Assembly (NCBI GenBank): GCA_964016885.1
Contig: CAXHJY010000365.1
Location: 1 to 50,915 of the forward strand
DNA: 50,915 nt
Direction of reading: 5' to 3'
Source: Eledone cirrhosa
Lineage: Eukaryota
Position numbers and translations under genes: made by a program. Below, in pieces: positions 33,777-46,016 of the stretch. The number at the start of each line of letters is the position of its first letter. Within the stretch, counting starts at the first letter, position 1. The notes under the pieces are model-generated. The model worked only from the letters and a program-made list of their open reading frames with translations, was not told the origin of the DNA and did not search any database.

Positions 33777-33892
33777 GATAGATAGATAGATAGATAGATA
33801 GATAGATAGATAGATAGAAAGATAGATAGATAGATAGATAGATAGATAGATAGATAGATAGATAGATAGATAGATAGATAGATAGATAGATA
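33777..33892 (+). repeat. (GATA)n, ~29 units, 3' of copy C
   Basis: Direct reading. Confidence 0.97.
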
Positions 33893-34211
33893 TGTTTCTT
33901 TTATTTGCCACAAGGGCATCAAAAGTGGGACAAGTACAATGGGGGGAGTTTACAAAACAAGGCGTCCTCAATAGGGAGGAGGCAATAACAATATATAAAA
34001 ATAAAATAAAATATAACAAAAAATAGAATTATAACAAAATCCTCAATAGAGGATTTTGTTATAAAATATAACAAAAAATAAAATTTATAACAAAATCCTC
34101 AATAGAGAGGAGGCGCCTTGGGGGGTCGCACACACGCCCGAAAAAAGTGTGCAACCCTTTTCCTCAGGAGCACAGAGAGGGGGTGCTCCCTCGTTCCTTC
34201 CTCTTTTCCAC

Positions 34212-37200
34212 CTACAGGCTTATGTAAAGAAAAGGCCCATTCACACGGGCCATTCTCGCCCCTTTCACCCACCTTTCATAAAAACGACTGGGGTGCAGCA
34301 CCTCTCTCTCCATCCTGATCCTTCTTCCGAAATGATATCGGAAGAAACGGACCAGTTGTTGGCCAGAGAGAAAGGTGCCTGACCTCAGTCCTTTCAGACG
34401 CGTCCACCATACAACCTCTTTCGCCATGGCTATTACGCACAGAAACACCGCCTCTTCTTCATCTTTGAAGGGGGAGGCGGCTTGATCATTACAATAGACT
34501 CGGTGGTCAACCGGATCGGTCCCACCCTTGACAGCAGTTGTTCGACATAGCCCCACAGATCGGTTACGCCCGAGCAGTGTACCAATGCGTGTGCAACGGT
34601 TTCCTCGTCGAACGCGCATCTGGGACAGATCTTTTTGGCGGGGTCCCTACCCGGGCGCCCGTGTCTGTAGAGCATTTCTCGAACGGGTAAAGCTCCTCGG
34701 TAGCACTGCCAGGCCAGGGACTTCTGGAAGTTGTCCATAGGTCCCGGGCTGAATGTCCTACCGAACAGGCTGGCCAGTTCGTCCTCATCCATGTCTAGGG
34801 CTTCTCCGAGGGCGTCGTCCCTCTATAGAATGTTGCGGTGGAGTCTCCACTGATAACCGGATCCGCCTGCCAGAGGGCGGTCGCGCCTGGGCACACTCAG
34901 TGTGCCAGGCGCCCAGTTTTCTCGGTCTTTGCTTGACCCAGGATTGCAGCTCGGTGAGTGAGACGAGTCTGGGAAAGGTTCGTCTCACAAACGAGGCCCA
35001 CACCGGTTGTCCGGTGAGGAATACGTAGAGGTGCCGTAGCCTTAATGCTTGTTTACGCATCATTAGCCACGGCATCCCCAGCCCTCCTTTCGAAGGGTGT
35101 TGACAGCAGATGGATCTCCTCACCATAGGAGCCCGCCTCTTCCAAAGGAATTGGAAGAGCGCGCGCTCCATCTTCGACGGGTTTCCCTTGGGCAGGGCAC
35201 TACGGTCAGGCGGTAGTAGATGACGGACGCTATGTAGGTGTTCGCCACATCCGCCCGACCTTTCAGGGATAGTTTGCAACTGGCCCACTTCTGGGTCTGT
35301 GCAAACACCCTGTTCGTAACCTCCGCCCAGTTTTTCTCCACCTGGAGGTCCGGTCCGATCCAGACCCCGAGCAACTTCACAGGGCCCTCCGTCCAGCGTC
35401 CGACGACGCCATCGGAGGGCATCCGTCTGCCCCTCCACGTGCCGAGTTGCAAACCGATCGACTTGTCCCGGTTCAGCTTAGCCCCTGTGAACTTTTCGTA
35501 CTCCTCCAGTAAGGTGGCGACCGCCTCGATTTCGGAGGCCGTCGACACCATTACTGTCACGTCATCGGCGTAGGCCGACACCGCTTTCCGCAATCCCGGT
35601 TCCAAAGGGATGCCCTGCAACAACTCCAACTTCCGCAGTAGTGGCTCGAGAGTCAACACATACAGAAGGGAGGAGAGAGGGCACCCTTGTCGGATGGACC
35701 GCGCGATTTTGAACGGCTCCGAGAGGTAGCCGTTCACCTTGACCCTAGAGCAGATGCGTCTGCTGTGCATAGCAGTGATCCAGCCCCTGAAAACGGGTCC
35801 GAAGCCTGCCGCCGCTAGCACCGCATCCAGGTAACCATGGTCGACCCTATCGAACGCCTTAGATTGATCCAAGTTGATCAGAGCCCCACCAAAGCCGGGT
35901 TCGTTCCCAACCCTCTCTATGATGTATTGCATGAGGTGGAGGTTGTCATGGATGGACCTGGACGGGATAGCGCATGTCTGCGCATCTCCCACCAGGTTGG
36001 CCACGACTAGCGCCAACCTCTTTGCTAGCACCTTGGCCAAAATCTGTAACTCTGTATTTAGCAGAGTTATGGGCCTGAAGTTACTTATTTCGTCCCCCTT
36101 GTTCTCGTCCTTCCTCACTAGCGTGACTACGCCCTTGGTCACGGTACAGGGAATTCTCCCGTTCTGTTGCCAGTTGCAGTAGACCGCCTCGAGGAGATCG
36201 GGGAACAAGTCCGGCATAGCTAGATATAATTCGTAAGGAAGACCATCGAGACCCGGGGATTTGCGTTTGCCGCATTGGCTCAGCACGTCCTCTATCTCAG
36301 CGACCGAAATCGGCTCCTCGCAGGACTTCGCCTCCCTGTCCGAGAGGCGCGGCAGGCCGTCGAGGTATGGACCGAAGTCCACGTTCCCAACCGGCTCCTC
36401 GCCCCTCCCGAACAGTCGGGCAAAGTGCCTTTGAAAGGCCTCACATATCTGCTTAGGCTCAAGAATCGCCCGTCCATCCAGGTCTCGCAAAGACCGGATG
36501 GTGGATTTAGTTCCACTGTTGGCCTCTGTCACGCGGGCCCAGCTAACAGCTTTGGTCCCCTCGTTCCCTAGAGCACGTATTTTACTTCGGACAACGCAGC
36601 CTTCGTGCTTCGCGTCGAAAAACTGGCTCAAAGCCGTTCTCGACGCTAGCACTCTGGCCACGTCGCCGCTTCTAATTGCCTCTTCTACTCTATCTATTAG
36701 CTCCCTTTCCTTCCTATTCCTATCCGCAGCTAGAACCTTACTAAATTCTATCGAGACTACTCTAATCTCTCTCTTTAGAGATACCCACCACCTGCTGTTG
36801 ACGATCGCTCCAGTCAACCGTTCCTTAACTAACGTACTAATCCGATTCCTGTAGGCTCTACTTGCCGGCAAGGACAAGTTGAGCTTCCAGTAACCGGGGT
36901 CCTGTCTATGAGTTCTGTCAAGGTTGACCATGCAGGTCACTAATTTGTGGTCTGAATAGCCAACCATGCGCATTTTTGGACAACTTAAAAAGTCCTTATC
37001 CTTAATTCTAACTAAGAACCTATCTAGGTACGACCTAGATGATCCGCTACGATTGGCCCAAGTCCAGGTTGGCGCAGTCGGAAAATCTAGTCGATATCTA
37101 TCGGCCAGGTCAAATCGACCGATTAACCCTTTGAGGCTATTACACCCCTCTCTATCGGGGCAGGCCCCTACGTAGTCCCAGCGTGCATCTAGGATACCAT

Positions 37201-43971: not shown

Positions 43972-45728
43972 TTACCTCTCTGCGTCCCGGGTATCGGGCT
44001 CCACAATTTCTATTAGGGTGGGGGTAGGGGGTGGAAGTGTAGGGGCATCAGTGTGTTGTGTGGTTGGGGAGTTTGGAGTTGTGTGGGTGTTTGGGGAGAG
44101 GGTGGGGTAGTTTTTTAGGAGGACGCGGTTAATGGGCCCGACGCAGGGGGGACCCACGTCCTCTTTAAAATTGTTTATTAAAGTTTTATAGGTGTCCTGT
44201 GGGGCCTTAATCATTTTGAGGTGGGGGATATCCCCTGCCTGGGTGAAGTTAGGCCTTTGTGTTTTTATTAGTTTTTTGTTGTACACAATGTTTAACAGTT
44301 TTTTGTTTCTTGTGTTTATGTATGTATGTGCATGTTTTTGTTTTTGTGTGGTGTTTTTTGTTTGCTGTTGTTGTGAGCTCTTTTGTGTTGGTGTCAGTGT
44401 TATGTTTTGGGGAGGGGTTGTTTTCATCTGTGTGTCTGAGGTGTGTTTTCTTTTTTTTCTTTTGATTGTGTGGAAGTGCTCCTCGTCGTCTGACGACGAA
44501 CTAGGGTCATCTTCCGCGTTGGAGGGGAGGGGTATATTTTCGGGTTGTGTTTGCGTTGCGGGTGTTTTGGAAATTGTTTTTGTTTTTTGAGTGGAGGGGA
44601 TGGGTTGGACATTGTTTTGTTTTGGTTTGAGCTGTGGTGGTTGTTTTTGTAGTGGTAGTTGTTGTGATTGTGTTGGTTGTGCAGTTGTTGGTGGTGTAGG
44701 CAGGATTGGGGTTTTCTTATTAAGTTGGGGACAGACAGCCCTCATGTGACCTCTGGTTCCGCAGAGGTAACACGAGGGCCGCCTACCCTCAACGGTAATG
44801 TTGATGAAAGTTACATCATCCAGTATGACGGGCCTCATTTGAACTACAAGTTCGAAGCTCGTTACACTGAACGCGTCACCCGATGCCTTTACCATGGATA
44901 CCAGCATGTCATCATCCTGGTCCAGGAAACCTCTCAAAACCCACCATATGTCCATAATCGGCAGGATGGTGTGGATTTTTATTTTTTGTGTTCTTCTACC
45001 CATGTACGTAGGGTAGAAGGTGTATGCGGTGGATGTGATTGGTTTGATGGACAGTTTCACTGCTGTGTCCCTGTCCTTCATGAGAATGGATAGACTCCCG
45101 TAGAGTCTATCCTTCTGAATGAAGGTGATGTCCTTCATGGCGTCTTTTAAAACCAGCTCTATCTCACTCTGTGATGGTTGAGCTGGTTTTTTTTGCTTTT
45201 ATTCGAGATTGTCCTAAACATGACAGTGTTTAGGAGTCTCTGGCTTTTTAGTTCCGGGGGGGAATGGATCGTGAATGAACCATTTTCCCCGTACACTATA
45301 TAGTTTTTGGCATCTGCCAGTAGCTCCTTCGCTTTGGTTATATCTACTGGCAGATAGTCGAGGGTTTTCCTTGCCGTCTCGGCGAAGGAGAAATTTTTTT
45401 TGTTTGTGTTGTTGTTGTCGTTGGTGGTGTTGTTGTTATCATTGTTGTTGTTGTCACAGTTATTGGTCTTGTTGTTGTTGTTATTGTTATTGGTGTTGTT
45501 TTCGTCCGTCGCATTGTTGTTGTTGTTGCTGTTGCTGGTGCCGCTGGTTCTTTGGGTTATTGCCATGGCAACGTCAAGTTGTCGGTTAACAGGTGGAGAA
45601 AATCCTTCCTCTGGCTGACCTTTCTTTTTGACCTCTGCTACTGTGGCAGTGGCAGGGGGAAGCTGTAAGCTTATCTTCCCCTTTCCTCCTTCGAATTTTG
45701 GTGAAGATGCTTCAGCCATTTTTATCAA
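43972..45728 (-). pseudogene. ORF1 (gag-like nucleic-acid-binding protein) of copy A
   Basis: ORFs 45159..45728 and 43972..45138 join across a frameshift at a T-run near 45190 (copy C reads ...SNKSKKPAQPSQ). Poly-Asn N-terminus and CYLCGTRGHMRAVC (CX2CX4HX4C) zinc knuckle. Confidence 0.85.
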
Positions 45729-45936
45729 AATAGGATTTTTCGAAATATTAAATGTTTACAACACTATTTCGCCTAAAGGCGTAGAATATTTTGAGAGACT
45801 GACCAGATCAAAATTTGACCTGGCAGTCCCTCTACAAAATGGTACAAAAATGAAAGTTTACAGTTCACAATTTCCAGTTAAGTTTAAACGAAACTTACCG
45901 AGCGAGCTCAGCACATGTGTCCATCGTAAAGAGAAA

Positions 45937-46016
45937 GATAGATAGATAGATAGATAGATAGATAGATAGATAGATAGATAGATAGATAGATAGATAGATA
46001 GATAGATAGATAGATA
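45937..46016 (+). repeat. (GATA)n, ~20 units, 5' of copy A
   Basis: Direct reading. Confidence 0.97.

Follow-up and report, generated by a model that had tools for sequence, protein, structure and literature searches.

Whether a repeat in which three transposable elements are stacked is their target or their product is the question raised by a 50,915-nt stretch of the Eledone cirrhosa genome (contig CAXHJY010000365.1), referred to below as the window, with coordinates counted from window position 1. The window carries three minus-strand copies (A, B and C) of an L1/Tx1-type long interspersed nuclear element (LINE), lying head to tail and interleaved and bounded by four (GATA)n tracts. We conclude that the stack very probably represents three separate Tx1-type insertions from a family whose insertions end at A(G/T)ATA, mostly in (GATA)n, and whose own endonuclease likely nicks the GATA strand and primes reverse transcription there.

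Insertion sites of the family

A genome-wide count of the exact 27-base 3' end of the element gives a family of at least 2,845 copies. Directly behind AGATAGATA lie 1,704 ends, which against 2,845 in all makes about 60%, an approximate figure since the two search patterns differ by two bases. Junctions were sampled from the first 90 of 100 listed places on C1, with up to 7.5 kb fetched into each, and the 3' junction ends in A(G/T)ATA in 88 of these 90 consecutive copies. When the junction is read on the GATA strand in the direction of the element, there is no variation at positions -2, -3 and -6, position -4 is constant in 89 copies, and position -5 carries G in 73 copies and T in 16. The junction of locus L032 reads GGTA, the sole such case in the sample. 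Sites with at least two GATA units (GATAx2) hold 43 copies, lone AGATA 29, (TA)n tracts 10 and lone ATATA 6, with the remaining 2 elsewhere. The background in 20 arbitrary 10-kb stretches is 55, 605, 9,152 and 5,608 sites for the first four classes, which corresponds to a preference per site of roughly 700 : 44 : 1 : 1. Targeting is a strong preference that is not exclusive to tracts; lone AGATA and (TA)n sites are used too.

A GATA 8-mer is found within 40 bp of the 5' end in 52 of the 90 copies, compared with 222 of 56,920 random 40-bp windows (0.39%). The count of 52 includes two hand corrections (L096, of a divergent subfamily, and L110, with a 5' inversion), and two rows with short flanks are scored as misses. 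Truncated copies without a neighbouring element have GATA at the 5' end in 24 of 58 cases, and outside the window the near-full-length 5' ends, judged by eye, run into GATA in about 26 of 29. Tx1 families have been treated as target-specific when one sequence type makes up more than 20% of flanks (PMC4494074), a proportion that is exceeded on both the 3' (43/90) and 5' (52/90) sides. In raw restriction-site-associated DNA reads (possibly including duplicates) from three other samples, the element 5' end continues into GATA. The 3' part of the element is also matched in public data from organisms A, B and C, in matches that give no flanks. The data sets listed as containing the family, short contigs or restriction-site-associated reads, include none of RNA, which has no bearing on its expression.

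Fifteen target-site duplications (TSDs) are anchored in non-repeat bases. They measure 8-21 bp (possible microhomology included), A(G/T)ATA forms the end of each, and added repeat units are seen in none of the 15; the base following the TSD is G in 12. Tract length is alike on both sides, with means of 5.2 units 3' and 5.5 units 5' in 86 copies (the two short flanks, L096 and L110 being set aside), and in nine copies 1-2 units on the 3' side face 5-13 on the 5' side. Since the TSDs carry no added tail, the GATA repeat is the target, and its core is the short motif A(G/T)ATA.

Several observations weigh against this conclusion. No GATA 8-mer is present at the 5' end of 38 of the 90 copies, and seven copies have 5-16 units on the 3' side with 0-1 on the 5' side and no unambiguous TSD; these seven could be due to a deletion after insertion, to deletion of target DNA or to a tail that occasionally grows. 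ATATA sites hold 16 of the 90 copies and lone AGATA 29, so that the (GATA)n targeting proposed in the initial annotation stands while its strictness does not. An empty allele was not seen, the assembly having one haplotype at both outer flanks of the array. All 90 sampled copies have the exact 27-base end and were drawn from a single stretch of one chromosome, and the site background covers 200 kb only, with a small GATAx2 count.

Further insertions fall in other repeats. At L114, L119 and L254, three insertions from two families occupy the identical base of a dispersed non-microsatellite repeat, which speaks for targeting of the motif. Another dispersed non-microsatellite repeat is common to L034 and L117, and the elements at L032, L060, L075, L076 and L120 are inserted in minisatellites with AGATA- or ATATA-like motifs in their units. 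The 5' parts of L015 and L110 are inverted, as is the expected outcome of twin priming. L077 and L115 are 99% alike in the reverse transcriptase (RT) and 87% in the endonuclease; an identity mosaic along the element is seen in L077, L096, L115 and L184, and 5' ends and open reading frame (ORF) 1 vary between subfamilies. These mosaic identities suggest recombination between families with a common target. Complete ORF2s are present in copies elsewhere in the genome.

Sister lineages and the choice of target

The initial annotation described one target-specific family. The target specificity is borne out, and it belongs to several families of one lineage that have the GATA target in common. A second family has 6,503 exact 3' ends, with AGATA at 27-30 of 30 junctions per position, and further 3' ends with GATA flanks occur beyond these two families. 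In an RT tree of 30 rows, from which two short rows were left out, the GATA-flanked group forms one clade (100/100). L175, whose 5' end runs into GATA, falls inside this clade, and the clade stands beside Argonauta, one further protein and a lineage that inserts at AAT (99/99). The closest named relatives are those from Argonauta hians (61-67%), which points to an octopod host, and a large ENA/JGI group (P0003-P0025, P0124-P0193) is the next-closest clade at about 53% RT identity. A metagenome scan returned distant relatives only, with no GATA tracts in any of the nine loci listed.

The AAT lineage (L224-L253, L284-L293, L301-L303) has the same 3'-end design as the GATA lineage, with 7,134 exact ends. 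Complete ORF2s are numerous in it, and it forms head-to-tail arrays with a spacing of about 6 kb. AAT occupies positions -5 to -3 in 30 of 30 sampled junctions and GATA is found in none of the 30, which argues that the choice of repeat follows the element and not repeat-rich DNA generally. The two lineages are about 60% identical in the endonuclease and 74% in the RT. Fixed differences occur at 37 endonuclease positions (five GATA versus two AAT sequences), one of which, S194I, lies at the tip of the hairpin aligning with the L1 loop. Whether an octopod Tx1 radiation divided the microsatellites of the genome, with one lineage on (GATA)n, including roughly half of its long tracts, and its sister on (AAT)n, is in our judgement evenly balanced. 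If true, the pair, in which each lineage has many complete natural copies, would allow a direct test of target switching by the apurinic/apyrimidinic endonuclease (APE) type of LINE, enzyme versus read-through RNA.

Reverse transcription in APE LINEs starts from a nick that the endonuclease makes in one DNA strand, and this enzyme is the main determinant of the target (PMC4494074). For the GATA lineage, the GATA strand would be nicked first, either behind ...AGATA or at the T/A one base before that point, as the sequence fits both. A transcript that continues into UAUC and pairs with the primer is suggested by the fixed 3' end, by the lack of poly(A), by the AATAAA a short way upstream and by a terminal base that is inherited within subfamilies. 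Base pairing between the downstream UAUC units of this RNA and the primer at the nick would fix the precise point where synthesis begins; RNA-target pairing has been reported for the I factor, R1Bm and R2Ol (PMC6007223). A second-strand nick 8-21 nt away would then leave GATA on both sides of every insertion.

Such pairing could also carry the choice of target itself. An endonuclease of loose specificity would nick A/T-rich DNA, only those nicks whose 3' end pairs with read-through (UAUC)n RNA would be extended, and it would be the RNA end that passes on the target. Junction invariance is strongest on the primer side, poly(A) is lacking while AATAAA immediately precedes the 3' end, the one or two bases adjoining the target are inherited by subfamily, and the hairpin loop is nearly identical in the GATA and AAT lineages, all of which would fit target selection after the nick, for which the I factor, R1Bm and R2Ol again offer a precedent (PMC6007223). 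However, the G after the TSD (12/15) lies beyond the pairing region, the 37 endonuclease positions distinguish the two lineages, and the Tx1L endonuclease nicks its own target almost exclusively in vitro (PMC1950540). We consider selection after the nick unlikely, if well short of implausible, and tentatively favor a choice made by the endonuclease of the element.

The three stacked copies

All three copies in the window are defective, A and C through frameshifts in ORF2 and B through truncation. Substitution divergence is 6.0% between A and C, 7.2% between A and B, and 2.2% between B and C. Compared in 500-bp steps with the loci in hand, a set skewed toward C-like copies, B matches dispersed copies at 99.8-100%, C mostly at 98-99.6% and A mostly at 97-99%. 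Each is nearer to dispersed copies than to its array neighbours, and A, B and C were therefore inserted separately and stacked in one GATA repeat. This confirms the initial annotation in its reading of three same-strand copies as independent insertions and in its finding that every junction is (GATA)n, with tracts now measured at 29.5, 22.2, 18.2 and 21.5 units (Table 1). Copy B is likely the youngest, the last to land, between A and C. Poly(A) is absent at the 3' end of all three copies, as had been noted; the 3' end does not run straight into (TATC)n as had been claimed, as one extra base, a T in copy B and an A in the other two, separates GAAAC from the TATC run. This terminal base follows the subfamily across the 90 sampled copies.

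Since the array contig (C392) is not one of the large chromosome-size sequences, one might suspect that the copies were duplicated in tandem or were joined through their GATA tracts during assembly. Either would be very unlikely to produce copies that are 2-7% apart, have unlike 5' ends and terminal bases, and are closer to dispersed copies than to each other. Moreover, both outer flanks of the array are single-copy in the assembly, and stacking recurs elsewhere: a related 3' end lies within 300 bp of the 5' end in 24 of the 90 sampled copies.

Perfect GATA runs of at least five units number 34,768 genome-wide (209,071 minus 174,303 overlapping matches). The 32 stretches sampled in sequence along C1 contain 38 long GATA clusters. 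An automatic test shows the lineage adjoining 20 of these, in 15 of the stretches, and three more carry a 5'-end motif that is tied to the lineage via one locus. With GATA left on both sides of an insertion and about half of the long tracts taken, stacking would be expected. Arrays would arise because insertions, at more than 9,000, are numerous relative to the long GATA tracts available (about 35,000 perfect runs of at least five units). The self-extending array put forward in the initial annotation is thus retained as far as regeneration of the target by TSDs is concerned; no special mechanism of self-extension is called for, and TSD regeneration and crowded targets suffice.

LINEs of the RTE clade have a self-made, variable microsatellite tail at the 3' end and a unique 5' flank. 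If (TATC)n were a tail of this kind, the tracts would have been born from the insertions, as the seven copies with long 3' tracts and none 5', and the contact of about half of the long GATA clusters with the lineage, might indicate. This explanation is largely refuted, and we give it scant probability: no units were added in 15 of 15 anchored TSDs, tract lengths are symmetric with no 3' excess, 24 of 58 lone truncated copies have 5' GATA, and long tracts free of the element exist. The initial annotation had itself named unique 5' flanks in most copies elsewhere as the sign of an element-made tail, and that pattern is not what the 90 copies show (52 with GATA at the 5' end). The element is therefore not assigned to the RTE-type self-tailing class.

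Random insertion with persistence only in microsatellites through purging elsewhere, as suggested for Drosophila Waldo-A/B (PMC3812793), is the least probable explanation, as the junctions are base-exact, strand-specific and in phase, (TA)n sites outnumber GATAx2 sites 166 to one yet hold 10 versus 43 copies, and the sister lineage is on a different repeat. It is rejected along with tandem duplication and the element-made tail.

Table 1. Features of the stacked array in window coordinates
Feature	Position	Strand	Remarks
(GATA)n tract; 3' flank of copy C	33775..33892	+	29.5 units, 1 interruption
Copy C: 5'-truncated LINE, 5.2 kb, cut falls inside ORF1	33894..39097	-	~99% identity to dispersed copies
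Copy C ORF2: APE endonuclease, RT, C-terminal zinc knuckle	34215..37627	-	residues 1-816 open, frameshift after
Copy C ORF1 remnant, CX2CX4HX4C knuckle	37652..39025	-	
(GATA)n tract; 5' end of C, 3' end of B	39099..39187	+	22.2 units (22 perfect)
Copy B: 5'-truncated, 989 bp, 3' piece	39189..40177	-	99.8-100% identity to dispersed copies
Copy B ORF2 tail	39455-40177	-	
(GATA)n tract; 5' end of B, 3' end of A	40176..40248	+	18.2 units, 14 perfect
Copy A: full length, 5,682 bp, several frameshifts	40250..45931	-	~98% identity to nearest sampled copies
AATAAA hexamer a few bases before copy A 3' end	40255..40262	-	same in B and C; no poly(A) after
Copy A ORF2, at least 5 reading-frame pieces	40517..43947	-	
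Copy A ORF1, CCHC knuckle	43972..45716	-	1 frameshift near 45187
(GATA)n tract; 5' flank of copy A, then single-copy DNA	45932..46017	+	21.5 units, 20 perfect

Outside the array, the window holds a 169-aa frame at 9125-9634 (-) that resembles a PIF1/Helitron helicase fragment, and an 840-bp array of (GTG/GAT)-type triplets at 5426-6263 with a 9-bp period and 93 copies. A short element at 33185-33400 lies between (TA)n runs with an inverted repeat inside it at about 33270-33400, and is possibly a miniature inverted-repeat transposable element.

Element class and comparison with known systems

ORF2 matches the Pfam families Exo_endo_phos, RVT_1 and zf-RVT, the last slightly below the curated cut-off, and has the motifs N10, E40, GDWN140, SDH225, YADD686 and CPRC1008. 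The ORF1 of copies A and C has no Pfam match; it carries a CX2CX4HX4C motif, and its Atlas look-alikes are zf-CCHC proteins (score 0.91-0.92). A separate ORF1 with a CCHC knuckle is a feature of the Tx1 clade. A phmmer search with ORF2 gave 311 bits to a catfish "transposon TX1 149 kDa protein" (an automatic name), versus 166 bits to human L1 ORF2p, and the element is on this basis Tx1-like; two plant RT proteins scored 89-104 bits. In the RT tree it clusters with proteins of turtle and fish and is separated from the plant rows (97/94), in a sampling that has no curated Tx1 row and in which two long-branch rows intrude. No family name could be matched to the zebrafish "pol-like protein" BAC82609.1. 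A single-sequence fold of the endonuclease was uninformative (predicted local distance difference test score 35), and the predicted RNA fold of the 3' end was no more stable than shuffles (z 0.91). In L191, a distant relative of Tx1-like type that ends in poly(A), the sequence at 80-112, near the start of the element, resembles the 5' end of U1 small nuclear RNA; Rfam gave no match.

The endonuclease shares the APE scaffold and catalytic motifs with those of Xenopus Tx1L and human L1, and the anchors of the hairpin loop align (PMC1950540). The loop between the anchors has nine residues, the length found in L1, compared with 11 in Tx1L and the fish Tx1-like proteins, and the target motif is A(G/T)ATA, as opposed to TTTT/AA, with no poly(A) present. 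In L1 loop-grafting, specificity was not cleanly transferred (PMC1950540), and a 2013 review describes the mechanism of microsatellite targeting as "not well understood" (PMC3812793). A young, abundant GATA lineage with a close AAT lineage is an unusually clean pair for this question.

Within cephalopods, L1-Tx1 elements are documented, with 13 recently active families in an O. vulgaris annotation (PMC13282606). The main text of that paper, in which the whole words "target" and "GATA" occur zero times, treats L1-Tx1 without target analysis, and a coleoid repeat survey lists L1-Tx1 without targets in the part excerpted (PMC8967140). Searches of the open literature, most hits of which were judged by their listings, turned up no GATA-targeting LINE; Repbase, Dfam, subscription papers and Figure 3 and the supplements of PMC4494074 lie outside that scope and could name one. 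In the host, GATA microsatellite markers will often be split or flanked by a LINE, and stacked arrays can trouble assembly.

Microsatellite targets of other LINEs include ACAY, AC and TAA for Waldo, Mino and Dong and (TG)n for Togen (PMC3812793, PMC4640811). Kibi and Koshi, teleost LINEs of the Tx1 clade with (TC)n and (TTC)n targets (PMC4494074, PMC3812793), resemble the present lineage as APE-type LINEs inserted in a microsatellite with repeats on both flanks. They differ in target, as the present lineage uses (GATA)n/(TATC)n and, failing that, lone AGATA and (TA)n, and in host, which here is a mollusc; the fish Tx1-like ORF2s, none labelled Kibi or Koshi, are only 28-30% identical to the present ORF2. 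Crocodilian Tx1 families target (TTCC)n/(TTTC)n, so that related families again have a tetranucleotide preference in common, and tandem stacking through sequential insertion has been described for SINEU-3 (PMC4494074). The crocodilian targets are pure pyrimidine/purine, whereas GATA is alternating and A/T-rich, and the present family is young, with copies up to 100% alike. The junction motif A(G/T)ATA corresponds to none of (TC)n, (TTC)n, (TTCC)n or (TTTC)n. We conclude that a GATA-seeking Tx1-like lineage with an AAT sister is well supported; microsatellite-targeting Tx1 elements being known, it is not a new kind of system, and it extends the few microsatellite-seeking LINEs described to the (GATA)n target and to a mollusc host.

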